This document shows positions 49,358 to 63,865 of a DNA stretch of 64,000 nucleotides, one piece after another; positions within the stretch are counted from its first letter, which is position 1; the number at the start of each line of letters is the position of its first letter. The position numbers and the translations under genes are program-made. The notes beneath the pieces were generated by a model. The model was not told the origin of the DNA. It made no database searches and was given only the letters and a program-made list of their open reading frames with translations. The DNA is from an uncultured Gemmatimonadaceae bacterium. GTDB lineage: Bacteria; Gemmatimonadota; Gemmatimonadetes; Gemmatimonadales; Gemmatimonadaceae. Location: contig CAVUDW010000003.1 in the NCBI GenBank assembly GCA_963740355.1, forward strand, positions 2,336,001 through 2,400,000, read 5' to 3'.

Positions 49358-51640
49358 TCAGCGCAGGATTGCGCCCCACAACAGTGGCTGGGTGTTCATG
49401 CTCTGCCCCCGATATTGCGGACGGAAGCCGAACAGGATCGCGTGACCGCGGCCGACCGTGACATCGACCATCGCCGCCTTGCCATTCAACTTCGAGCCGC
49501 CAAGCAACCAGCCGGAGAGGAGTGGGTCGCCAGTCGCTGGATACGACGCGACCGCCACCGCGCGTGTCGCGTCGGTGATCTCGAAGGTCGGGCTGTCCTC
49601 GAACCAGGCCGCTGGTACCGGTGCCGTCATGCGTGACACGATCGGGCTGGCACTGTTGAGCGTGATGGAGAGCAGTGAGCCCGGTGCGTAGAAGTCCGTG
49701 TTCTTCACACCAGTGAGCACGTTCTTCACCGGCAACTCGAGCGTCTCGATCGCATAGTCGCTGGCATCGTTGAACGTGATCAACGTGCCACCATCGTTCA
49801 CGAACGCCTTCAGGCTGGCAGCACCCGCATCACCGAGTCCACCGCGCAGCGAGTCAGGGTAGGGTGCACCAAGGCCACGCCGCAGCTGGTTGGCATTCTG
49901 GTCGGGCAGGATGATCACATCGAATCGCGCCTTCAGGTTGCCCGCCCGCATCTCGGCGTCGAGTACCGTGCGATACGGAATCTTGTTGACGTCGAACATC
50001 CAGCGCGTCCATCCCTCATCCATCGAGGCGTTGTAGCTGCGATAGATCGCGATCCGCTTCGGCGACTTCCCGCTCAAACCCTTCACGCTGAACGTGGGCT
50101 CCGGCATCGCCGCACTCAGTGCACCCATCGCCGGCGCCGCGCCGGTGACGGCATTCACCTGCACGCCGAACAACAGCGGCAGCGTGTGCGCCGTCACGTC
50201 GTACGGTCGCTTCGGCGGACCACCCGGATACTCGCTCAGGTTTGGATACTGCTGGCGCTCCAGCAGCGCCTTCGCATACGATCCGAACGGCTGCATCGTG
50301 GGCACGATGTAACTGCCAGCCGGCACCGACTCGTACACTTCGACCTGCCCGTGCTGCAGCGTCCAGATCAGGCGCTGCAATGCCTGAGGATCTTTCTGGT
50401 CGCGCGGAATCACGAACGCCGACGGCACCTCGGTGGTCGTCCACGGATGATCCGCAGCCATCGCACGATCCGCGATCGAGAGATAACTCTCCAGCCACTG
50501 CCGACGATCGCGCGCCACCGACGCCAGCATCGCCCATGTCGCGCTGGCCTGATAGGCCACGATGTCACCGTACGTCCAGCGACCGCCGGGCCAGCGCGCC
50601 GGATAGTTCCACGATGTCACTCGCGCGTCGTACCCACGCGCGGTGCCGAGTTGCGTGAACGGCATGTCGATCGGCGACGCGAGCCGCGCACTCGCGGTCT
50701 CGGTGAGGATGCGCACGCCGTGATGGTTGAGCGAATACTGCCGCGCCGGCGACCACTGATCGTACGACGCATTCGTCGCCACACCCGTCTTCCCTTCGGC
50801 AATCATGCGCCATCCCATGCTCATGCCCAGCGCATTGGTGCTGGCGGTCAGCACGGGATCGATGTTCGGCTCCACCGGATCCATGTACGGCGGAATGAAG
50901 ATGCGACCACCGTTCGCGCCCTGCTGGTGAATGTCGTTCACGATCGCAGGAGTCCACGGCGAGTACAGCGAGTCGAGCACCATCCGCTGCTCCACCTGCG
51001 TGAACGCATACCAGTCGCGGTTGTTGTCGTGCCCCGTGTAGTGATGGTAGATCTCCGGCGGTTGCGTCCCTTCCGCCGGTGTGCCGAGCGTGCTGCGATA
51101 CCAATCTCCAACGATGTCCACACCGTCAGGGTTCTGGCTCGGCACCAGCATGATGATCGTTTCCTTCAGGATCTCGCGGGATTCGGGCGTGTCACTGCGG
51201 ATCAATCGATCGGCGATCACCAGGGGTGATGAGAATCCGCCGACTTCCGTCGAGTGAATGCTCGATGTGATGAGGACGATGTTGCGCCCCTCGTTCAGCA
51301 GCTGCTCGCGATTGGCGCTGCCACGCTTTCGCGGATCGAGCAACTGCTGCTGCACCTGACGGAAGTGCTCGAGGTTGGCCAGGTTCGTCGAGTCACTGAT
51401 GAACGCCACTATGAACGGCCGGCCCAGCGTCGTCTTGCCAAGGGTGCGAACCTGCACATTGGGACTCGCCGCATCGAGTGCCGTGAAATAGTCGGTGACC
51501 TGCTTCCACGACGGGAGTTTCCGGTCGGTGCCGGGCTCGAAGCCAAGGATGCTGGCAGGGGTGGGCACGGCGGGGCGCTGTGCATGCACTGCGGCAGCAG
51601 CGGACAACGCCACCGCCACGGTGAAGAGACGACGCATCAC
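49358..51640 (-). CDS. M14 zinc carboxypeptidase family protein, exported
   Basis: IHSTE, NPDG, DNNRDW, DIHQ; C-terminal GAT-like domain (DEGWTRW, FGFRPQYR). Confidence 0.88.
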   Translation of the reverse strand: MMRRLFTVAVALSAAAAVHAQRPAVPTPASILGFEPGTDRKLPSWKQVTDYFTALDAASPNVQVRTLGKTTLGRPFIVAFISDSTNLANLEHFRQVQQQLLDPRKRGSANREQLLNEGRNIVLITSSIHSTEVGGFSSPLVIADRLIRSDTPESREILKETIIMLVPSQNPDGVDIVGDWYRSTLGTPAEGTQPPEIYHHYTGHDNNRDWYAFTQVEQRMVLDSLYSPWTPAIVNDIHQQGANGGRIFIPPYMDPVEPNIDPVLTASTNALGMSMGWRMIAEGKTGVATNASYDQWSPARQYSLNHHGVRILTETASARLASPIDMPFTQLGTARGYDARVTSWNYPARWPGGRWTYGDIVAYQASATWAMLASVARDRRQWLESYLSIADRAMAADHPWTTTEVPSAFVIPRDQKDPQALQRLIWTLQHGQVEVYESVPAGSYIVPTMQPFGSYAKALLERQQYPNLSEYPGGPPKRPYDVTAHTLPLLFGVQVNAVTGAAPAMGALSAAMPEPTFSVKGLSGKSPKRIAIYRSYNASMDEGWTRWMFDVNKIPYRTVLDAEMRAGNLKARFDVIILPDQNANQLRRGLGAPYPDSLRGGLGDAGAASLKAFVNDGGTLITFNDASDYAIETLELPVKNVLTGVKNTDFYAPGSLLSITLNSASPIVSRMTAPVPAAWFEDSPTFEITDATRAVAVASYPATGDPLLSGWLLGGSKLNGKAAMVDVTVGRGHAILFGFRPQYRGQSMNTQPLLWGAILR

Positions 51641-52712: not shown

Positions 52713-53534
52713 TCAGTCGAGGAACTTCAGGACCGACGCCACCAGCCCGTACCGCCAGGCCAGCACACCGGCCAGCACGAGCAGGATCAGCAGCGCGAGC
52801 CCCGTGATCGCCTTCTGCCAGAGCTTCCGCTGGCGGACCTCACGCTCCTCGCGACGCTCCACCACACCGAGCTTGCCGGTTGGGACGCGTCGAGTGTAGT
52901 GGTCGGTCCGCATCGCATGCGCCGTCTCGAGCGCCCGCCGCACCGGCGGATCCACCGTGAACCAGAGCACTGTGCGGCCAATGCCAATCGCATCGCCATC
53001 GCTCAGCCGCGTCGGCTTCTCGACCTTGGCGCCATTTAAAAGCATCAGGGCGCCGATTTCGGGCAGCAGGCGGAGGCTGTCGCCATCCCGCTCCAACCGC
53101 GCGTGCACCCGCGAAACTTCCGGTTCCTGAAGAAGCACGGTACAGCCCGCTTCGCGGCCGATCGTGGTCGCGTCCTGACCGAGGGCGTACACCCGATCCC
53201 GCCGCGCGTCACGGAGCCAACCAGAGCCCGTTCCGGTCACCGATGGCGGGGCCTCCGACTCGAACCGGAACTCGTGGGCACCCATGACGATCACGTCGCC
53301 GGGCTGGAGGCGATGAGGCTCCCCGGTCAGTAATTCGCCATTGACCAGAATCTCCGCCTCGGCACTGGCTCGACTGATCGTCGGTACGCCGTAGCTGCCG
53401 TCACTCATGACGAGCGCATGCAGCCGCAGCAGGTCGGGTTCGCGGATCCGCCACGTGGCTTCGACGCCGCTTCCGATGGACAGGACGCCCAAACCGAGCG
53501 GTCGAGTCTGGTCGCCGAAGATGAGATGGGCCAT
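52713..53534 (-). CDS. Membrane-anchored protein with two FHA domains
   Basis: TIGRE..C...L.EP.VSRVHA...NG..V....L.DGD.I.IG (canonical FHA) plus a degenerate N-terminal FHA; C-terminal TM segment. Confidence 0.85.
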   Translation of the reverse strand: MAHLIFGDQTRPLGLGVLSIGSGVEATWRIREPDLLRLHALVMSDGSYGVPTISRASAEAEILVNGELLTGEPHRLQPGDVIVMGAHEFRFESEAPPSVTGTGSGWLRDARRDRVYALGQDATTIGREAGCTVLLQEPEVSRVHARLERDGDSLRLLPEIGALMLLNGAKVEKPTRLSDGDAIGIGRTVLWFTVDPPVRRALETAHAMRTDHYTRRVPTGKLGVVERREEREVRQRKLWQKAITGLALLILLVLAGVLAWRYGLVASVLKFLD

Positions 53535-53655: not shown

Positions 53656-54963
53656 ATGAGTGACGAGACCCTGAGCTCAGCTGCCATGCCCTCGACGAGC
53701 CCGACGGAGGCCTACGCCTCCGACCTGGGCCGTTTGCAGCGCACCGCACCGCTTGGCCCAGCGGATGATGCGTGGCTCGTCCTTGCCCATTCCCTGACCC
53801 GCTTCGGCGCCCTCAGCGCGGCGGATTTGAATGAGATCGCGCCGGCATCAGCGGACCTCCTCGCAGTAAGCGCGATGGCGGCTGGGCTGGCTGCCCAGTC
53901 GAGCGTGCTGCGGGCGGCACGGGCCCTTCGAGCCCTGCCAGACGGGTACACCGAGCTGCCCAGTGGCTACGACGCCGTGACGGAGTTGGTGATTGCGACG
54001 CAGGCCGTGGCCGAAGAGCAGGAACTGGCTGGTGGATTCGGGCTGGCGTACGCAACCTTGCGCGCGTTGCGCCAGGCGTTTTCCTCGCGCGTCTCACCGC
54101 GCATCGACGGCAATGTCGTGGCGCAGATCGGCCGTGCCGCGCGCCAGCTGGGTGCCGTCGATGTCGCGCGCGAGATGTACGAGGACGCGATGCTCATCGG
54201 CTATGAATGCGAGGCGCTCGATGTGGTCGCCCGTGCATTGCTCGGCCTCGGTGTCATTGCACTCACACGCGGCAACTATCCCGCGGCGCGCGAACAGTTC
54301 GAGCGCGCGCTGCTGAACGCCGATCGAGCCAACGATCCCGAACTGATCCGCTCCGCGCATCACGGCCTGCTCAACTGTGGCTTTGCCTCGGGCGACCTCG
54401 ACTCGGCGATGGTGCACGGGTGGAATGTGCTGCGGCTCTGCATCGCCCCGGATTCGCGAGCGGAAGCGCTCATGAACATGGGCGAAATCTGCCGACTCAC
54501 CGGTGAGCATGACGCCGCCATGCGCGTCTACGCGGTCGCCATGGAATGGACCTCGCAGCGCCGTGTTCGCCTGCATGCGCTGAGTGCCGCGCTACAGTCC
54601 GCCGTCACGATCAATCGTCTGTCGGATGCGCGCCGGTATCTGGCCGAGCTCACCGAGCTCATGCCCACCGTGCCCGATCCCTATACGCAAGCGAACATCG
54701 GAGTCGAAGTCGCAGATTCGCTCCACCGCCTTGGCGAGTCGACTGCTGCCGCGGCGATGCTCGATTCAGCTCTCTCACTGGCAAGGGAACACGCGTTCCA
54801 CGAACTGGTTCATCGCGCGGAGCAAGCTGCAAGTGTGTGGCACGTCGCACCTGTGCCGGACCCACTCGAGCAGAAGCATTCGCGCCGGAAGCGCCCGTAC
54901 AGGTCCGAGCACTTCCGGATGGTCCTGCGGTCACTGAATGGCCTGACCGCTGCGTCGCTCTGA
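53656..54963 (+). CDS. Cytoplasmic TPR-repeat protein (candidate peptide receptor)
   Basis: TPR-like helices QIGRAARQLGAVDVAREMYEDA, LGLGVIALTRGNYPAAREQFERAL, MNMGEICRLTGEHDAAMRVYAVA; no signal peptide or TM segment. Confidence 0.8.
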   Translation: MSDETLSSAAMPSTSPTEAYASDLGRLQRTAPLGPADDAWLVLAHSLTRFGALSAADLNEIAPASADLLAVSAMAAGLAAQSSVLRAARALRALPDGYTELPSGYDAVTELVIATQAVAEEQELAGGFGLAYATLRALRQAFSSRVSPRIDGNVVAQIGRAARQLGAVDVAREMYEDAMLIGYECEALDVVARALLGLGVIALTRGNYPAAREQFERALLNADRANDPELIRSAHHGLLNCGFASGDLDSAMVHGWNVLRLCIAPDSRAEALMNMGEICRLTGEHDAAMRVYAVAMEWTSQRRVRLHALSAALQSAVTINRLSDARRYLAELTELMPTVPDPYTQANIGVEVADSLHRLGESTAAAAMLDSALSLAREHAFHELVHRAEQAASVWHVAPVPDPLEQKHSRRKRPYRSEHFRMVLRSLNGLTAASL

Positions 54964-54969
54964 CGCGGA

Positions 54970-55176
54970 CTAGTGCCAGGGGATCGTCGGCACTGCGCCG
55001 TTCTGCACGTCGAACCAGGGGATGGTCGGGACGCGCTTGGTCGTGTCGACATCGGCGCTCACCTGCTTCTCCGAATTCTCGACCAGCGGTGATGTCGGAT
55101 CAGCTGCGCAGGCCGAGAGGCCGGCGGCGAGGATCAGCAGAGCGGCGAGTGCGGTGCGGTGGCGGAGCGTCGTCAT
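54970..55176 (-). CDS. 68-aa lipoprotein-type precursor with duplicated C-terminal VPTIPW[F/H] motif
   Basis: AGGA RBS 8 nt before ATG 55176; MTTLRHRTALAALLILAAGLSA-C lipobox; ...DTTKR-VPTIPWF-DVQNGA-VPTIPWH*. Confidence 0.8.
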   Translation of the reverse strand: MTTLRHRTALAALLILAAGLSACAADPTSPLVENSEKQVSADVDTTKRVPTIPWFDVQNGAVPTIPWH

Positions 55177-55213
55177 GGCAGTGTCCTGAGTTGGGTGTAC
55201 ATCAAACCTGCCG

Positions 55214-56215
55214 ATGCCGGCTCTGATCTCCGCACACGGTGCGGGCACCACCCTCACCGGATGGGAAACCGTGGGATTTCCGTTGGTCGACGACAGCAGG
55301 AACAACCAGAGCCGCCCTCTGCAACGGGTGGTCGCAGCCCTGGTACGCGATCGTCGCGACCTGGCGCGACTGCAGGAGGCACTGCGCCCGTCCGCAGGTG
55401 CGCCACCTGCCGGCGTGCTGCATGCATTCGAGCGCGTCGATCGACTCGATGCAGCGCTGCAGCGCACACACTTCGATGTGTTGGTCATCGAACCGACCGA
55501 TGCCGATGGTCATTCGACCGAGGAGATGATCCGGAGCATTCGCGCCCGTTTTCCGCGTCTCTCGGTGCTTGGCCACGTCGTGATGCGCCCCGGGATCTCG
55601 TCCTCGGTGCTTTCTTTCGCGCGCGCCGGTGTACACGAACTGATCGTCTCAGGTATCGACGACACTGCGATGGTGCTTCGCGTCGCGCTGCAACGCGCCT
55701 CGCAGCGCTGCCTGGCGGAGGAGGTGTACGCGGAGGTGAGCTCATCACTGCCGCGTGAAGCCGCCCGACTCGTGCGTTATTGCCTCGAGCATGCGAGCGA
55801 GTCGCCAACGATCGATGACATATCACGCGCACTAGGTGTGCATCGACGCACGCTCGTCAATCGCATGCAGAATGCGATGCTCCCACCACCGAGCGAACTC
55901 TGGGCCTGGTCTCGCGTGCTGCTGGCAGCGCGGTACCTCGAAATGCCAGGACGCTCGGTGGAGTGGGTGGCTCACACAGTCGGATACCCATCGGCGAACG
56001 CGCTGCGCAACGCACTCAAGCGCTACACTGGACTGGTGCCGAGTGAGTTGCGAGAGGACGACGGTTTCGCCCGTGCGACGCTCGCCTTCCGCGGTGCACT
56101 GCTGGCCACGTCGCGTCACGTGGGACCACTGATGATGCCGGTCGGTCAGCGAACGCGCCTGCAACGAAGTGGTGCTGCATCCGACCCGCTCGCGGGCGTC
56201 AGACAGGCGGTGTAG
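55214..56215 (+). CDS. AraC-type HTH regulator with atypical (pseudo-)receiver domain; start may be GTG 55271
   Basis: Receiver-like FDVLVIE...IRARFP.L.VL...ARAGV; AraC HTH TIDDISRALGVHRRTL and SVEWVAHTVGYPS.NALRN.LKRYTGLVP. Confidence 0.85.
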   Translation: MPALISAHGAGTTLTGWETVGFPLVDDSRNNQSRPLQRVVAALVRDRRDLARLQEALRPSAGAPPAGVLHAFERVDRLDAALQRTHFDVLVIEPTDADGHSTEEMIRSIRARFPRLSVLGHVVMRPGISSSVLSFARAGVHELIVSGIDDTAMVLRVALQRASQRCLAEEVYAEVSSSLPREAARLVRYCLEHASESPTIDDISRALGVHRRTLVNRMQNAMLPPPSELWAWSRVLLAARYLEMPGRSVEWVAHTVGYPSANALRNALKRYTGLVPSELREDDGFARATLAFRGALLATSRHVGPLMMPVGQRTRLQRSGAASDPLAGVRQAV

Positions 56216-56767: not shown

Positions 56768-57220
56768 TCAGGGGATCGGTCGCACACTGTCGACCGTGAT
56801 ATACCCACCGCCATCGTTCTCAGGAGTGCCGTACGTCAGTGTTCTCGGATAGCCGAGCTTGTCGTCATAAGTCACTTGAAGCCGTTCAGGCCGCTGGCGA
56901 ATCTCTTCCGCGACCTGCTTGAAGATGCTGTCCACCGGCTGACGCCACGTCAGCGGCTCGGATGCACCAGTGCCGACATCCACGATCGCCGTGACCTGTC
57001 CATTCCGGACGGTGACGCGCTTCGTTCCTGTGAATTCAGGCAAACAGAAGCACAAAACGGTGCTATTAAAGCTATAATTGACCAGCCTGGCGTCAGACCA
57101 CTTCTTCTGCGCGCTCTGCAGGTCGAGCCGCTGACCGAACGGAGACGTCGGATCGGAGGTGCAGGCCGCGGCAACGGCGACCGCCACCAGTCCAAGACTC
57201 GCCAGTCGATGTCTGCCCAT
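56768..57220 (-). CDS. DUF6174-like lipoprotein
   Basis: AAAC lipobox; W......Y.F....CFC, V.V.NG.V, V.YD..LGYP. Confidence 0.75.
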   Translation of the reverse strand: MGRHRLASLGLVAVAVAAACTSDPTSPFGQRLDLQSAQKKWSDARLVNYSFNSTVLCFCLPEFTGTKRVTVRNGQVTAIVDVGTGASEPLTWRQPVDSIFKQVAEEIRQRPERLQVTYDDKLGYPRTLTYGTPENDGGGYITVDSVRPIP

Positions 57221-57331: not shown

Positions 57332-57376
57332 ATTCGTCAACAGTTTTGTTGACGAATCCGCATACCCGACTAGTTT
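57332..57376 (+). promoter_or_regulatory. suf operon promoter with SufR-type operator
   Basis: Perfect inverted repeat ATTCGTCAACA-GTTT-TGTTGACGAAT containing CAAC-N6-GTTG (the motif described for cyanobacterial SufR); TTGACG-16-TAGTTT; ATG 7 nt later. Confidence 0.8.
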
Positions 57377-57383
57377 GCTCGCC

Positions 57384-58094
57384 ATGGAAGAAATGGGGAC
57401 CGCGCTCGTCGGCTATCGTGGGATTCAGGCCGAACTGCTGCTGGCGCTGAAAAAGCACCAGCCGCTGACGGCGCGCGAACTGGCCGCCCGTTTCGACCTC
57501 ACCCCGAACGCCATGCGTCGCCATCTCGAGACCCTCGAGGCGGCCGGCATCATCCGTCACTCGCGCGAAGTGCGCGGTGTTGGTGGGCCGGTGCATGCGT
57601 TCTCCCTCACCGGCAGTGGTGAGGCGCTCTTCCCGCGTCAGTACGCCACGGTGCTGCTGGAGACGCTCGAGTCCATCGCCACCGAACATGGTCGCGGTGG
57701 CGTGAGCGACTTCTTCCGGCGGAAGTGGACAGCCCTCGCGGCCGAGGCCGCACCCGCGCTGCGACAGCTTCCGCTCACCGAGCGAGTGCAGTTGCTGGCT
57801 GAGTTGTGGACGTCGCTTGGCTACATGGCCGAGGCGGATGTCGATGACGTCACCGGCCTGCCCGTGCTGCGCAAGCACAACTGTGCGATCCGCGCCGTGG
57901 CGGAGCAGTACCCGGAAATCTGCGCGACCGAGGCGGCCTTCATCGAAGACGTGATCGGTGTGCCGACGGAACGCCGCCAGCACATCCTGGCGGGATGCAA
58001 CACCTGTGAATACGTGGTCGGCGGCGCACAGATCGCGCGTCGATCGACCGAGCTGGCAACAAGCAACGCCGGTGACCGGCGTGGAGAAGCGTGA
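57384..58094 (+). CDS. sufR: SufR-like Fe-S cluster regulator
   Basis: N-terminal wHTH (NAMRRHL..LE..G.I), FPRQY, HNCAI..VA..YP.IC..E, C..C; heads the suf operon. Confidence 0.85.
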
Positions 58095-58098
58095 CGCG

Positions 58099-59532
58099 AT
58101 GAGCAGCGAAATCGAGGCCCTCGTTGGGCGAGAGTATCAGTATGGATTCGTCACCGATATCGACGCCGACACCATCCCGCCGGGATTGAGTGAGGATGTC
58201 GTACGGCTGATCTCGGCCAAGAAGGCGGAACCCGAGTGGCTGCTCGAGTGGCGCCTCAAGGCCTACCGTCGCTGGCTCACGATGACCGAGCCGACGTGGC
58301 CCAACGTCCACTATCCGGCCATCGACTATCAGGCCGTCCGCTACTACTCCGCGCCCAAGACGGCCAAGCCCCTTGGTTCGCTCGACGAAGTCGACCCCAA
58401 GCTGCTCGATACCTACAAGAAGCTTGGCATTCCACTGCATGAGCAGAAGATGCTCGCCGGCGTCGCCGTCGATGCGGTGTTCGACAGCGTCTCGGTTGGC
58501 ACCACCTACAAGGCCGAGCTGGCGAAGCACGGCATCGTCTTCTGCAGCTTCAGCGAGGCGGTGCACGAGCATCCGGAGCTGATCAAGAAGTATCTCGGCA
58601 GCGTGGTGCCGTACAGCGACAACTTCTTCGCGGCGCTCAACTCCGCGGTCTTCAGCGATGGCAGCTTCTGCTACATTCCGAAGGGCGTGAAGTGTCCGAT
58701 GGAGCTCAGCACCTACTTCCGCATTAACGCCGCCGATACCGGCCAGTTCGAGCGCACACTGATCGTGGCCGAAGAAGGGGCCAGCGTGAGCTACCTCGAA
58801 GGGTGCACCGCGCCCAAGCGCAGCACCAACCAGCTGCACGCCGCCGTGGTCGAGCTGATCGCGCTCGACGATGCGACGATCAAGTACAGCACGGTGCAGA
58901 ACTGGTATGCCGGTGACGAGAACGGCGTCGGCGGCATCTACAACTTCGTCACCAAGCGCGGCAAGGCGATGAAGAACGCCAAGATCTCGTGGACGCAGGT
59001 CGAAACCGGCTCGGCGATCACATGGAAGTACCCCAGCGTGATCCTGCAGGGTGACAACTCCATCGGCGAGTTCTACTCGGTGGCCGTCGTCAACAACATG
59101 CAGCAGGCCGACACCGGCACGAAGATGATCCACATCGGCCGCAACACGAAGTCGAACATCGTCAGCAAGGGCATCAGCGCCGGCCGCGGGCAGAACAGCT
59201 ACCGCGGCATGGTGAAGGTGCTGCCGAAGGCCGAAGGGGCGCGCAACTACACGCAGTGTGACAGCATGCTCATTGGCAATGCCTGCGGCGCGCACACCTT
59301 CCCGTACATCGAGATCAACAACAACACGGCGACGCTGGAGCATGAAGCGTCGACGACGAAGATCGGGGAAGACCAGATCTTCTACCTGAAGCAGCGCGGC
59401 ATGAGCGCGGAAAACGCGGTCAGCATGATCGTCGCCGGCTTCTGCAAGGAAGTGTTCAAGGAACTGCCGATGGAGTTCGCCCTCGAGGCGCAACAGCTGC
59501 TGGGCATCACACTCGAAGGCTCCGTCGGCTGA
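58099..59532 (+). CDS. sufB: Fe-S cluster assembly protein SufB
   Basis: [39 protein letters not shown]. Confidence 0.97.
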
Positions 59533-59581
59533 GCCGAACTGCCTGGACCCGATTTTTCACACACGCTGCGACGAGAACCAA

Positions 59582-60340
59582 ATGAGCATGCTCGAGATTT
59601 CGAACCTGACGGCTACGGCCGGCGACAAGGACATCCTGAAGGGGATCAACCTCACCGTGAACGCGGGCGAAGTGCACGCGATCATGGGCCCGAACGGCAG
59701 CGGCAAGAGCACACTGGCGCAGGTGCTGGCGGGTCATCCGTCGTATGAAGTCACCGGCGGTTCCGTGCTGTTCGAGGGCGAGGACCTGCTCGAACTCGAT
59801 CCAGAGGTGCGCGCCCACAAGGGTGTCTTCCTCGCCTTCCAGTACCCGATCGAGATTCCGGGCGTGAGCAACGCCTACTTCCTGCGCAGCGCCTACAACG
59901 CGATGCGCGTGGCGCGCGGCGGCGAGGAGATCGACCCGATGGAATTTCTCGACGTGATGGAAGAGAAGCTCAAGATCGTCGAGATGGATGACGCCATGCT
60001 CTCGCGCAGCGTGAACATGGGCTTCTCCGGCGGCGAGAAGAAGCGCAACGAAATCCTGCAGATGGCGGTGCTCGAGCCGAAGCTGGCGATCCTCGACGAA
60101 ACCGATTCCGGCCTCGACATCGACGCACTGCGCGTGGTGGCGGAAGGTGTGAACAAGCTCCGTCGTCCGGACAACGCCGCCATCGTGGTGACGCACTACC
60201 AGCGCCTGCTGAACTACATCGTGCCCGACTTCGTGCATGTGCTGGCCGGCGGCCGGATCATCCGCAGCGGCACCAAGGAGCTGGCACTGGAGCTGGAAGA
60301 GAAGGGCTACGATTGGCTCCTGCAGGAGGCATTGGCGTGA
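59582..60340 (+). CDS. sufC: Fe-S cluster assembly ATPase SufC
   Basis: GPNGSGKST, FQYP.EIPGV, FSGGEKKRNE, LDETDSGLDIDA. Confidence 0.97.
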   Translation: MSMLEISNLTATAGDKDILKGINLTVNAGEVHAIMGPNGSGKSTLAQVLAGHPSYEVTGGSVLFEGEDLLELDPEVRAHKGVFLAFQYPIEIPGVSNAYFLRSAYNAMRVARGGEEIDPMEFLDVMEEKLKIVEMDDAMLSRSVNMGFSGGEKKRNEILQMAVLEPKLAILDETDSGLDIDALRVVAEGVNKLRRPDNAAIVVTHYQRLLNYIVPDFVHVLAGGRIIRSGTKELALELEEKGYDWLLQEALA

Positions 60341-61659
60341 GCGTGACGCACTGGCAGGCGGCCTTCGCCGCCCGCGTCGGCACCGATGAACCGCAGTGGC
60401 TGGCTCCGATGCGTCGCACCGCGATGGCATCGTTCAGCGCACTTGGGTTCCCCACGCCGGCGCTCGAGGACTGGCACTACACCTCGTTGTCGTCGATCGC
60501 CGAGGTGCCGTACACCGTGCATGTCGCGGCATCGTCCACCACGGTGGCCGACCTCACGCCGTACATGATCAACGCCGACTGGCCGACCGTGGTGCTGCTC
60601 AATGGCCGGTATTCGCCGGCGTTGTCGTCACTCGATTCACTACCCGCCGGGTTGCTGGTGATGGACCTTGCGCAGGCATGGCGCGAACAGGCTGACCTGG
60701 TGCAGAAGCATCTTGGCACAGTCGCGGTCAGCGAACATGCCATGACCGCGCTCAACACGGGCCTCATGCGCGACGGGGTACTGGTCTACGTGCCGAAGGA
60801 CGTGGCGTCCGACACCCCGATCCACATCCTCCACGTCACCGATGCCGCCGGCGCGTCGTCGGCCAAGTTCCCGCGGACCCTGATCGTGGCCGAACGCCAC
60901 GCGAAGGCCACCGTGCTGGAGAGCTTCGTCGGCCTGGCAGACGTGGCGTACTTCACGAACCATGTGGCGGAAGTGGTGGTCGGTGAGAACGCGACCATCA
61001 CCCACAGCAAGATCCAGCGCGAGTCGGACCTCGCCACACATGTCAGCACCACCGAAGTCCATCAGGCCCGCGACAGTCACTACGTGAACTTCTCGATGGC
61101 GATGGGCTCGAAGCTGAGCCGCACCAACGTCTACACGGTGCTGGACGGCGAGAACTGTGGCGCCACGCTCAATGGCCTCTACCTCGGCAAGGGCTCGCAG
61201 CACACCGATCACCAGACGCGCATCGAGCACGCGCAGCCGAACTGCTTCAGCCGCGAGTTGTACAAGGGCGTGCTGGACGGCTCGTCGCACGCGGTGTTCA
61301 ACGGCAAGGTCTACGTGCATCCCATCGCACAGAAGACCGATGGCAAGCAGAGCAACCATACGTTGCTGCTCTCGCCTGAAGCGAAGATCGACACCAAGCC
61401 ACAGCTGGAGATTTTCGCCGACGATGTGAAGTGCACGCATGGCGCCACGGTGGGTCGCATGGACGAGGCGGGCCTCTTCTACATGAAGAGCCGCGGCGTG
61501 CCAGCCGAGACCGCGCGTCGCCTGCTCACCTATGCGTTCGCGGCCGATGTGCTGGAAACGATCGAGAACGAGACGGTGAAGCACGCCCTCGAGCAGCTGA
61601 CGCTGGAGCGCTACGCTGGCGTCAGTGCCGCACGACACACCGCAGGCCAGCAGAGCTGA
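60337..61659 (+). CDS. sufD: Fe-S cluster assembly protein SufD
   Basis: E.W.YT, FNGKV.V...AQKTD, KPQLEIFADDVKCTHGATVG. Confidence 0.95.
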   Translation: MSVTHWQAAFAARVGTDEPQWLAPMRRTAMASFSALGFPTPALEDWHYTSLSSIAEVPYTVHVAASSTTVADLTPYMINADWPTVVLLNGRYSPALSSLDSLPAGLLVMDLAQAWREQADLVQKHLGTVAVSEHAMTALNTGLMRDGVLVYVPKDVASDTPIHILHVTDAAGASSAKFPRTLIVAERHAKATVLESFVGLADVAYFTNHVAEVVVGENATITHSKIQRESDLATHVSTTEVHQARDSHYVNFSMAMGSKLSRTNVYTVLDGENCGATLNGLYLGKGSQHTDHQTRIEHAQPNCFSRELYKGVLDGSSHAVFNGKVYVHPIAQKTDGKQSNHTLLLSPEAKIDTKPQLEIFADDVKCTHGATVGRMDEAGLFYMKSRGVPAETARRLLTYAFAADVLETIENETVKHALEQLTLERYAGVSAARHTAGQQS

Positions 61660-61661
61660 AC

Positions 61662-62105
61662 ATGTCGGACCTCGACGAGCTCTACCAGAGCATCATCCTC
61701 GATCACAATCGTCGGCCGCGCAACTACGGCGAGCCGGCGAGCTGCAGTCATCACGCGAGCGGGCGCAACCCGCTCTGCGGCGATGAAGTGACCGTCTGGT
61801 TGACCGTCGAGAACGATGTGATCACCGATGTGAAGTTCATTGGACAAGGCTGCGCCATTTCGAAGGCGTCCACGTCGCTCATGACCGACGCGGTCCGCGG
61901 CAAGACGACCGCCGACGCATTGGCGATGTTCGACAAGGTGCACGACCTGCTCACCGGCAAGTCGGACCCGATTGCGGAACGCAAGTCGCTGGGCCAGATC
62001 GCAGCCCTCGGTGGCGTGTCGCGGTTCCCGATTCGTGTGAAGTGTGCCTCGCTGGGCTGGCATGCGTTCCGCAATGCGTTGCTCAGTGTCGAAGCCGCAC
62101 CGTGA
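61662..62105 (+). CDS. sufU: SufU/NifU-like sulfur transfer protein (copy 1)
   Basis: LYQ.IILDH...PRN.G, NPLCGD, GCAIS.AS, RVKCA.L.W. Confidence 0.93.
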   Translation: MSDLDELYQSIILDHNRRPRNYGEPASCSHHASGRNPLCGDEVTVWLTVENDVITDVKFIGQGCAISKASTSLMTDAVRGKTTADALAMFDKVHDLLTGKSDPIAERKSLGQIAALGGVSRFPIRVKCASLGWHAFRNALLSVEAAP

Positions 62106-62137
62106 GCACTGACGTGAGCACTGAAGTGAGCACTGCC
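62102..62137 (+). repeat. 12-bp tandem repeat x3 (GTGAGCACTGxx)
   Basis: gtgagcactgac gtgagcactgaa gtgagcactgcc. Confidence 0.85.
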
Positions 62138-62166
62138 GCGCACGATTGCCCCGAGAGGAACTCCTG

Positions 62167-63393
62167 ATGACATCACTCGCGCCGCGCAGCGATTTTCCGC
62201 TCCTCGCTGACGCGCCAGCGCTGCACTACCTCGACTCTGCCGCCACGGCGCAGAAGCCGCAGGCGGTGCTCGACGCCGTGCAGCACTTCTACACCCACGA
62301 CAACGCCAATCCGCATCGCGGCGCCTACGCGCTCTCGGCACGCGCCACGGAGCGGTATCACGATGCGCGCACCACCATCGCCCGGTTCATCGGCGCCAGC
62401 GATGCGGACACGATGCTGTTCGTCCGCGGCACCACCGAGGCGATGAACCTCGTGGCCTACGGCTGGGGTGATCGGAATGTCGGGCCGGGCGACGCAGTGG
62501 TGGTCACGGCGATGGATCATCACGCCAGCTTCGTCACCTTTCAGCAGTTGGCCTTGCGGAGCGGCGCTGAATTCCGGATCGCCGAGCTGACGGCCGATGG
62601 CCAGATCGACCTCGCGCACCTCGCCACGCTACTCGATTCGCGCGTCAAGCTGGTTGCGTTCCCGCAGGTGTCGAATGCGCTCGGTACCATCAATCCCGTG
62701 GCGCAGATCGTTGCCATGGCCCACGCGGTCGGCGCCATCGTGGTCTGCGATGGTGCGCAGGCAGTGCCGCACCTGGGCGTGAACGTCGAACAACTGGGTG
62801 TCGACTTCTTTGCCTTCAGTGGGCACAAGCTCGGCGGACCGATGGGCATCGGCGTGTTGTGGGGCAAGCGCGCGCTGCTCGAAAGCATGTCGCCGTGGCA
62901 GTTTGGTGGTGACATGATCGAGGTGGTGGGTGATCAGCACACCACCTTCAACACCCTGCCCCATCGCTTCGAGGCCGGGACACCGAACGCCGCGGATGCG
63001 GTCGGACTGGCAGCGGCCTGCGACTATCTCACGTCACTTGGCATGGATGCCGTGCGGGCGCACGAAGTGTCGCTCACGACGCACCTGCTGGATGCGTTGC
63101 GTGGTCTCGATGGCATCCGTATTTTCGGCCCCGCCACGGCGGCTGAGCGAAGTGGCGTGGTGAGTTTTGCCTTCGATGATGTGCACGCCCATGACCTCGC
63201 CACCATTCTCGACGAACATGGTGTGTGCGTGCGTGCCGGACATCACTGCGCGCAGCCCCTGATGCGGCGCCTCGGCATCCCGGCCACTGCACGGGCGTCG
63301 GTGTGGGTGCACTCGACGCCTGACGATGTCACCGCCTTGGTCAGCGCGCTGCAGCACGCCAAGACGTTGTTCGCCGATGGCGCTCTCCGCTGA
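62167..63393 (+). CDS. sufS: Cysteine desulfurase SufS
   Basis: YLDSAATAQKP, DGAQ, SGHK, EAGTP, RAGHHCAQP. Confidence 0.95.
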   Translation: MTSLAPRSDFPLLADAPALHYLDSAATAQKPQAVLDAVQHFYTHDNANPHRGAYALSARATERYHDARTTIARFIGASDADTMLFVRGTTEAMNLVAYGWGDRNVGPGDAVVVTAMDHHASFVTFQQLALRSGAEFRIAELTADGQIDLAHLATLLDSRVKLVAFPQVSNALGTINPVAQIVAMAHAVGAIVVCDGAQAVPHLGVNVEQLGVDFFAFSGHKLGGPMGIGVLWGKRALLESMSPWQFGGDMIEVVGDQHTTFNTLPHRFEAGTPNAADAVGLAAACDYLTSLGMDAVRAHEVSLTTHLLDALRGLDGIRIFGPATAAERSGVVSFAFDDVHAHDLATILDEHGVCVRAGHHCAQPLMRRLGIPATARASVWVHSTPDDVTALVSALQHAKTLFADGALR

Positions 63394-63865
63394 TCCGCCG
63401 CCGGTCCCGGTGGTCGCTTCGGCGCCGCCCGACATCGGCGTGGCGTCGCTCTACCAGGAGATCATCCTCTCTCACTATCGCGCCCCGAAGCACAAGGGTG
63501 TGATCAGCGGGGCGACGGCCGCGGTCGAACATCGGAATCCGCTCTGCGGCGATGTCATGTCGGTCCAGCTCACCTTTGACGGCGACCGGATTACTGACGC
63601 CGCGTTTTCCGCCCGCGCCTGCTCCATCACACAGGCCACCGCGTCGATGCTGCTCGATCGCATCATCGGGGGAACTGTTGCACAGGCGCAGCAGGTCGTA
63701 TCGGACGTGGAGCAGCTCATCGAGACCGCGCAGCCACCGGTCGAGGCCCACGCGGCCGCACTCGGCGACCTTCGCGCTCTGGCGAGCGTCGGACGTTTCC
63801 CGGCACGAAAGGCCTGCGTCCGCCTCGTGACGGGTGCCGTGGCTGAGGCACTATCCTCGCAGTAG
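63377..63865 (+). CDS. sufU: SufU/NifU-like protein (copy 2, divergent)
   Basis: LYQEIILSHY..P, NPLCGD, ACSI, RKAC; start overlaps the end of sufS. Confidence 0.8.
   Translation: MALSADPPPVPVVASAPPDIGVASLYQEIILSHYRAPKHKGVISGATAAVEHRNPLCGDVMSVQLTFDGDRITDAAFSARACSITQATASMLLDRIIGGTVAQAQQVVSDVEQLIETAQPPVEAHAAALGDLRALASVGRFPARKACVRLVTGAVAEALSSQ

Follow-up and report, generated by a model that had tools for sequence, protein, structure and literature searches.

The window, a stretch of 64,000 nucleotides from an uncultured Gemmatimonadaceae bacterium, raises the question of what a tiny lipoprotein gene ending in two copies of one short motif could be for. The initial annotation had placed two VPTIPW copies at the end of this gene and suggested selection on the peptide and a precursor of two related heptapeptides. 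Direct reading confirms the codons GTC CCG ACC ATC CCC TGG TTC at 55032-55012 for copy 1 and GTG CCG ACG ATC CCC TGG CAC at 54993-54973 for copy 2, the distance of 39 nt or 13 codons between the copies, the TAG that follows the CAC of copy 2, the KR ahead of copy 1, and the synonymous nature of both codon differences within VPTIPW. A polar linker separates the lipobox from the two copies. Within the 10.9 million six-frame residues of the 5.4-Mb genome VPTIPW occurs twice and PTIPW three times, so that the VPTIPW pair, the only two copies in the genome, exceeds chance expectation.

The gene is real, as had been proposed: orthologues are present in 17 of 19 genomes of the same genus, and the exact 68-aa sequence is a called, unnamed protein in a public collection, with no matching family in Pfam or NCBIfam. 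It is indeed concealed inside a listed 172-aa ORF (54970-55488), which we rejected as a gene; its upstream part overlaps a conserved intergenic block and the regulator gene described below. The ribosome-binding-like stretch at 55189-55180 is 95% conserved among 17 loci of the genus. Contigs of four sequencing runs over positions 54700-55500 were short, low-depth pieces only. The features of the locus are collected in the table.

Features of the locus (positions are those of the window).
Feature	Position	Strand	Basis and remarks
435-aa TPR protein, candidate receptor	53656..54963	+	Pfam TPR; convergent with the peptide gene, 6 nt between the two stops
68-aa lipobox propeptide gene (P0001)	55176-54970	-	ATG 55176, stop TAG 54970; sequence, orthologues, called protein
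Core copy 2, PTIPW, residues 63-67	54976..54990	-	1 residue before the stop; dN/dS 0.13
Core copy 1, PTIPW, residues 50-54	55015..55029	-	P50/T51/P53/W54 invariant; dN/dS 0.10
Predicted Sec/SPII signal	55108..55176	-	Basic n-region, hydrophobic core, lipobox L-S-A-C23, +2 = Ala; pattern test
AGGA, ribosome-binding-like	55184..55187	-	7 nt 5' of ATG 55176
40-nt conserved block, candidate promoter/operator	55230..55269		Between the divergent peptide and regulator genes
Pseudo-receiver + AraC HTH regulator	55283..56215	+	Divergent from the peptide gene; Pfam HTH_18, receiver/AraC matches

The peptide gene lies between a convergent gene for a TPR protein and a divergent gene for a pseudo-receiver/AraC regulator, two neighbours that the initial annotation did not mention and that carry most of the interpretation. 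In the genus, the TPR gene is present in 17 of 19 genomes, and at all 17 loci the peptide gene occupies the same place, always adjoining the TPR gene. The regulator is visible at 16 of the 17 loci, the remaining one (L016) stopping at a contig edge. A peptide profile search returned the same 17 of 19 genomes and zero extra loci.

The aligned peptides of the genus, 18 in number, contain 54 core copies, two to six in each, at a period of 10-15 residues with one of 23. By themselves, the two synonymous differences are weak evidence for selection (about 4.7 synonymous sites of 18, p ~0.07 by hand arithmetic). The question is settled by the orthologues: all 18 aligned peptides have the same P50, T51, P53 and W54, and the same C23. 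In pairwise Nei-Gojobori estimates, dN/dS is 0.10 in the first core and 0.13 in the second, whose alignment columns depend on the placement of repeats by MAFFT; the signal region (0.33) and the linker (0.38) have higher values, and the spacer between cores, with a pN/pS of 0.65, is saturated. Judged by these estimates, the PT[IL]PW core is under purifying selection while the spacers drift. The proposed selection on the motif is thereby borne out, as is its better conservation than that of the flanking linker; the accompanying claim of selection rather than duplication holds in its first half, and repeated tandem duplication is seen among the orthologues as well.

The conserved unit is narrower than a heptapeptide. 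The residue before the core is A in 19, V in 16, I in 5, E in 5 and another residue in 9 of the 54 copies, and the core is followed by A, N, T, Y, H, F or V. We therefore rejected V and H/F as core residues; on the alignment, the conserved unit is PT[IL]PW, five residues long. With two to six copies per precursor, V ahead of just 16 of 54 and a variable following residue, the idea of two related heptapeptides is not supported. The exact C-terminal position of copy 2 has a counterpart in 12 of 18 orthologues, where the last core ends one residue from the stop, while the other six carry a tail. A dibasic cut site had also been suggested. The KR pair stands right before the -1 residue of the first copy in only 6 of 18 orthologues, ten of the 18 have some basic pair at most four residues off and all 18 a single basic residue, and the internal copies mostly have neither ahead of them; KR was rejected as a conserved processing site.

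The three-gene layout extends well beyond the genus. Relatives whose TPR proteins are 60-65% identical carry Gemmatimonadaceae titles, and the Atlas clusters are mostly from Gemmatimonadota. Among 201 genomes drawn from the phylum, the regulator has a match in 133 (E<=1e-8) and the TPR profile in 118 (E<=1e-10); both tallies include one unpublished genome (G183), which is absent from all other results. TPR matches stronger than 1e-30 are confined to the class of the window. For the locus set we combined the same-genus loci, the phylum matches and 80 further regions and dropped 16 duplicates; G183, several contig-edge matches and 49 unlisted weaker matches were left out.

A short lipobox ORF adjoins the TPR gene at 117 of the 126 non-redundant TPR loci (E<1e-30), and at 107 of the 126 both partners are present, that is, a convergent short lipobox ORF and a same-strand regulator within 700 nt. 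The lipobox ORF stands alone at ten loci, of which two are truncated by contig ends, two have their regulator elsewhere and one is doubtful. At three loci the TPR and regulator genes are 37-49 nt apart with the peptide absent between them, and at six neither partner is in the DNA fetched. Random stretches passed the lipobox test in 25 of 2000 cases at 480 nt and in 47 of 2000 at 790 nt, and none of 110 gaps did so when read on the wrong strand; none of five weaker TPR loci had a lipobox ORF. These counts show conservation and are not independent trials, because cassette TPR proteins served to train the profile and the loci share ancestry. Four loci (L079, L156, L159 and L167) have TPR and regulator genes 37-62 nt apart and no peptide between them, and L146 and L168 are rearranged, with the regulator upstream or on the other strand.

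The genome of the window has no second cassette and one strong TPR match. Its two full-length receiver-AraC paralogues (L176 and L177) have neither a TPR match nor a short lipobox ORF in their 1.5-kb flanks. Four other genomes (G134, G112, G069 and G065) have five to eight TPR-profile matches each, and the paralogous cassettes that we read there differ in their tails. A scan of viral contigs with the regulator gave one marginal 46-residue match and no cassette. In the cultured Gemmatirosa kalamazoonensis KBS708, a complete cassette is present on both megaplasmids (L184 and L185; NZ_CP007130.1 and NZ_CP007129.1), with PW-type tails ending in CCVQPWY and CDATQPWWLC. A literature search of listings and abstract openings gave no paper on this cassette, and the main text of PMC9862903 does not contain the terms AraC, TPR, quorum or lipoprotein.

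The 435-aa TPR protein has Pfam TPR_2/12/8/1/7 above the cut-off; in NCBIfam, the TPR family was tested with the protein of the window alone. Its model (pLDDT 95) is all-helical, with an N-terminal helical cap, about seven TPR-like hairpins and a conserved C-terminal helix. By hydropathy, 131 near-full-length relatives all lack an N-terminal hydrophobic stretch or export signal, which points to a cytoplasmic protein. The top fold matches are LGN (Z 23.8, rmsd 4.4, 309 aligned), Pins (23.6) and a type 9 secretion chain (20.9), followed by RapI (Z 20.8, rmsd 5.1, 310 aligned), MalT domain III (19.8), RappLS20 (19.7), RapH (19.6), Rap105 (19.4), NprR (17.6), AimR (15.7) and PlcR (15.4). Foldseek ranked LGN first and Rap at ranks 28-38, and RRNPP proteins were absent from the best 60 of 160 PDB sequence-profile matches. 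The modelled protein is thus Rap-like in size and plan, with a generic fold no closer to Rap than to LGN.

Residues 241-280 are 89-93% conserved in the genus, whose peptides share a constant core, and 38-42% conserved class-wide. TPR position 6 is nearly fixed (94-97%) inside each of three clades, against 52% across all of them. With positions classed by the general TPR pattern, groove positions are 81% conserved in the genus versus 68% for convex ones. This groove test does not discriminate, since clade-fixed differences are about as frequent on the convex side (three of five positions) as in the groove (seven of eleven), and the conservation pattern gives weak sequence support for a ligand pocket. 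A predicted complex between the TPR protein and peptide residues 37-68 gave no answer (score 0.01, mark 0.32) and counts neither for nor against binding. Among the best 150 of 3164 strong TPR-profile matches, single proteins have the module fused to an XRE HTH (P0118, with two TPR modules) or to an ECF sigma factor (P0120), which ties the TPR module to transcription control; P0115 and P0136 have a doubled module.

The regulator model (pLDDT 91) combines a (beta/alpha)5 receiver fold with an AraC HTH. Canonical receivers have an acidic pair, a phospho-accepting Asp and a Lys. In 110 regulator sequences, the conserved acidic pair after beta-1 and the beta-5 Lys are missing, and the phospho-site is Asp in 82 and Glu in 23, including the protein of the window. 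On these sequences the regulator is probably not phosphorylated, which argues for control via protein binding. Its start is uncertain (TTG 55283 or GTG 55328). The longest ORF begins at 55214, and we rejected this N-terminal extension, which is frameshifted in L003, L005 and L007.

The same frameshifts in three orthologues indicate that the 40-nt block between the divergent genes is not the coding N-terminus of the regulator. Columns of this block are 94-99% conserved at 17 loci of the genus versus 57-86% in most flanking stretches, and the block exceeds even its coding flanks. Outside the genus, a direct repeat at lag 21 (at least 8 of 10 matches) was found 67-159 nt 5' of the peptide start at 67 of 90 loci versus 1.7 in shuffles; a clean 21-bp repeat is present at 2 of the 17 loci of the genus of the window. 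A spacing of 21 nt is typical of AraC half-sites. A scan for sigma-70 promoters and terminators found no promoter and nothing informative.

Mature cassette peptides have 18-80 aa, and their tails are lineage-specific, with GQG[AS]NN, Cys-closed loops, GSGT, D[FY]VNP and PW types. Cores other than that of the genus are multiplied in other lineages (DFVNPHV, DYVNPLG, ESQGSNN, SGAQGSGT and HTIGSGN), with tandem copies at L063-L065, L112, L136, L145 and the Gemmatirosa locus L173, that is, at no fewer than four separate places on the FastTree TPR tree. L085 has a single, terminal TLPWN. Given this single copy and the tandem multiplication across lineages, the pair in the window represents one state of an array that can expand. 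The tails of PW type group in a single clade (support 1.00), which includes some non-PW tails as well. We rejected the agreement of peptide type with the TPR tree as proof of co-evolution; gene linkage alone predicts it. Paralogous cassettes of the same genome can have different tails, as in L104 versus L114 and L087 versus L091. In 101 of 107 cassette peptides the lipobox Cys is followed at +2 by A, T or S, and in two by Asp; under the sorting rule given in PMC13056109, so rarely acidic a residue points away from retention in the inner membrane.

From these observations, the 68-residue gene is likely the precursor of a peptide signal within a conserved three-gene cassette. A multi-copy signal precursor is thus the part of the earlier multi-core proposal that remains the best reading; its two heptapeptides are not supported, nor is its RiPP alternative, for which the neighbours and flanking ORFs scanned gave no enzyme. 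We favour, by a modest degree, a Rap-Phr-like circuit in which PT[IL]PW is the ligand of the cytoplasmic TPR protein, which in turn controls the AraC-type regulator. Beyond the lipobox we infer every step of this circuit, from processing and import to binding and the direction of control. The propeptide would be exported by Sec, lipidated and cleaved by SPII at Cys23, and the lipopeptide, which has no acidic +2 residue, could be sorted to the outer membrane by a Lol-type route. Proteolysis would then free core-bearing peptides of about 5-13 residues, several per precursor, to be taken up, probably by an oligopeptide ABC importer, and bound in the TPR groove. The peptide-bound TPR protein would let go of the regulator, acting as an anti-activator rather than a phosphatase, and the freed regulator would activate the promoter of the peptide gene in a positive feedback. 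The sign of regulation and the anti-activator role are drawn from the analogy with Rap-ComA (PMC11343458, in part) and with the TPR-regulator-peptide triad RappLS20-RcopLS20-Phr*pLS20 (PMC7641744, in part).

A wider reading, to which we give a little less than an even chance, is that Gemmatimonadota own an intracellular peptide quorum-sensing family, possibly of independent origin. In it, the lipid-anchored propeptide would be delivered to the outer membrane or to vesicles and cut, the lineage-specific cores would be imported across two membranes, and the TPR anti-activator would gate a non-phosphorylated receiver-AraC activator. A positive loop and tandem cores that tune signal gain would complete an RRNPP-like system native to a Gram-negative phylum.

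The genome has the general genes for such a route, with two Lgt, two LspA and four family-5 peptide-binding proteins, the last of which show solely that an importer could exist. Among the flanking ORFs scanned, no dedicated protease or importer travels with the cassette; their families vary by lineage and include FHA, HD, YceI, Rho, amidohydrolase, deaminase and histidine kinase, among others. An exported M14 carboxypeptidase (49358-51640, minus strand) is encoded 3.3 kb from the peptide gene, and an ERAP1_C gene of M1 aminopeptidase type lies near the cassettes L063 and L065; both are possible processing enzymes.

Against the Rap-Phr-like circuit stands its topology, as a lipid-anchored precursor has to be cut and the core has to cross back into the cytoplasm. 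In an unlikely alternative with the same ligand-receptor pair, the cell listens to itself: the core would be re-imported from the cell's own periplasm, or an unexported precursor would bind the TPR protein in the cytoplasm, and the cassette would report lipoprotein export, periplasmic proteolysis or outer-membrane leakiness instead of neighbours. The lipid anchor, kept at 117 of 126 loci, would tether the precursor to the envelope of its producer, the outer membrane would hamper sharing, and the many Cys-closed tails could report disulfide formation. A private sensor has little cause, however, to diversify or multiply its cores by lineage, and the different tails of paralogous cassettes within one genome, such as the two pairs named above, fit separate channels. 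With a similarly low probability, the mini-lipoprotein is an output that the regulator switches on and that acts intact in the envelope, where its Trp/Pro motifs could, for instance, attach it to a transporter, porin or surface with an avidity that rises with copy number, while the TPR protein senses something else. Strict retention of the lipobox and the missing conserved cleavage site between core copies agree with such an output, and the upstream direct repeat suggests solely that the regulator controls the peptide gene; yet the peptide gene keeps its place beside that of the TPR protein at the 10 of 126 loci whose fetched DNA shows no regulator (two of them contig-cut), and the replacement of cores by unrelated ones across lineages would be unexplained.

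Less probable than either is a multi-core RiPP or lipidated DAG-RiPP precursor whose modifying enzyme is encoded elsewhere. Trp is a common modification site, and a leader followed by repeated cores is what such a precursor would have. RiPPs made through the lipoprotein pathway exist (PMC13056109, in part). Against this, the 67 ORFs scanned out of 112 candidates in flanks of about 1.5 kb include no modifying enzyme, nor do the neighbours in the window (46-64 kb), an MNIO (PF05114) has no match in the genome, which is 94.5% complete, and the cores across the class share no modifiable residue. That the ORF or its repeat arose by chance or is neutral is so improbable that we set it aside: the two synonymous differences alone are weak and the ORF is known from sequence, while the orthologue data, with the gene in 17 of 19 genomes of the genus and always beside the TPR gene, the low dN/dS of the cores and the controls of the lipobox test, exclude it.

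Compared with known systems, the Rap-Phr-like circuit that we favour finds its closest parallel in Rap-Phr of Bacillus, plasmids and phages. In both, a small exported propeptide is encoded next to a cytoplasmic TPR protein of 250-500 aa without a DNA-binding domain, a separate transcription regulator is the likely target, and Rap structures are among the best fold matches of the TPR protein. The two to six core copies parallel the duplicated pheromones of Phr propeptides in Bacillus (PMC11343458, in part). In contrast to Rap-Phr, the cassette belongs to a Gram-negative phylum and has a lipobox (SPII) instead of an SPI precursor, its peptide gene converges with the TPR gene and diverges from that of the regulator, the target would be a pseudo-receiver/AraC protein encoded in the cassette itself, no sequence-level homology to Rap was detected, and LGN has the higher fold score.

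Five genomic criteria for RRNPP systems, among them a propeptide of 10-100 aa, are given in the part of PMC10075063 consulted, where the "relaxed" level of the secretion tag admits LIPO/SPII. The cassette conforms to all five with the tag at this LIPO level: the propeptide has 68 aa, the pattern test finds a Sec-type tag (n-region, hydrophobic core, lipobox and invariant Cys), the 435-aa receptor with TPRs lies within 250-500 aa, and the two genes adjoin, with stops 6 nt apart here and adjacency at 117 of 126 loci. It departs from the "strict" level of a soluble Sec/SPI propeptide, the lipobox Cys being present in 18 of 18 orthologues and the lipobox at 117 of 126 loci, which indicates SPII. 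Its relatives are Gemmatimonadaceae and other Gemmatimonadota instead of Gram-positive Bacillota or mobile elements, and the host phylum is Gram-negative according to a reference title in PMC8779627. The regulator, without the acidic pair and the beta-5 Lys, also lacks the canonical receiver chemistry of a Rap-phosphatase target. The cassette likely works like Rap-Phr, and we do not file it as a member, because it has neither an SPI precursor nor a Gram-positive host and its fold matches do not set Rap apart from LGN.

The one-component regulators NprR-NprX and PlcR-PapR join HTH and TPR in one protein; they are among the fold matches, and the XRE-HTH fusion P0118 resembles them. They differ from the cassette, where the TPR and DNA-binding proteins are separate genes and the DNA-binding domain is of AraC type. 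DAG-RiPPs such as DybA/DybH share a tiny lipobox precursor with a conserved C-terminal motif (PMC13056109, in part), and the lipobox or leader with conserved cores is found here as in multi-core RiPPs. Unlike DAG-RiPPs, the cassette has no modifying enzyme, MNIO or other, in the flanks scanned and no Cys motif in the core of the genus, and its neighbours are regulators and not enzymes.

Cytoplasmic TPR receptors for secreted and re-imported peptides are treated as a Gram-positive trait in the consulted parts of PMC10075063 and PMC11343458. If the Rap-Phr-like circuit is true, its class-wide version in Gemmatimonadota, an abundant and little-studied phylum of soil and freshwater, would extend peptide signalling across an outer membrane, with two features new to the design: a lipoprotein as precursor and a receiver-AraC output that needs no kinase. 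Even without experiments, the repeat singles out PT[IL]PW as the probable active core. Since cultured Gemmatirosa kalamazoonensis KBS708 carries two complete PW-type cassettes, binding and reporter tests are directly feasible.

Farther out, the cassette is flanked by genes for an FHA protein, lipoproteins, the M14 peptidase and the suf operon, none of which is a RiPP enzyme. The FHA-domain membrane protein (52713-53534, minus strand) is divergent from the TPR gene and is a neighbour in all eight same-genus loci scanned; the flank scan did not find it kept in other lineages. The suf genes (57375-63865, plus strand) form an ordinary sufR-sufB-sufC-sufD-sufU-sufS-sufU iron-sulfur operon with two SufU-like genes. 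Between the regulator and this operon, a DUF6174 lipoprotein (56768-57220, minus strand) starts with C-T-S-D-P-T-S-P, and the peptide starts with C-A-A-D-P-T-S-P. A start of the form Cx(2-6)[PAST][TSV][GASE]P, a pattern defined after the peptides had been seen, is present in 78 of 107 cassette peptides versus 21 of 219 long lipoprotein candidates of the genome of the window (shuffles: mean 7.3, maximum 17), and may be a sorting or tether motif.
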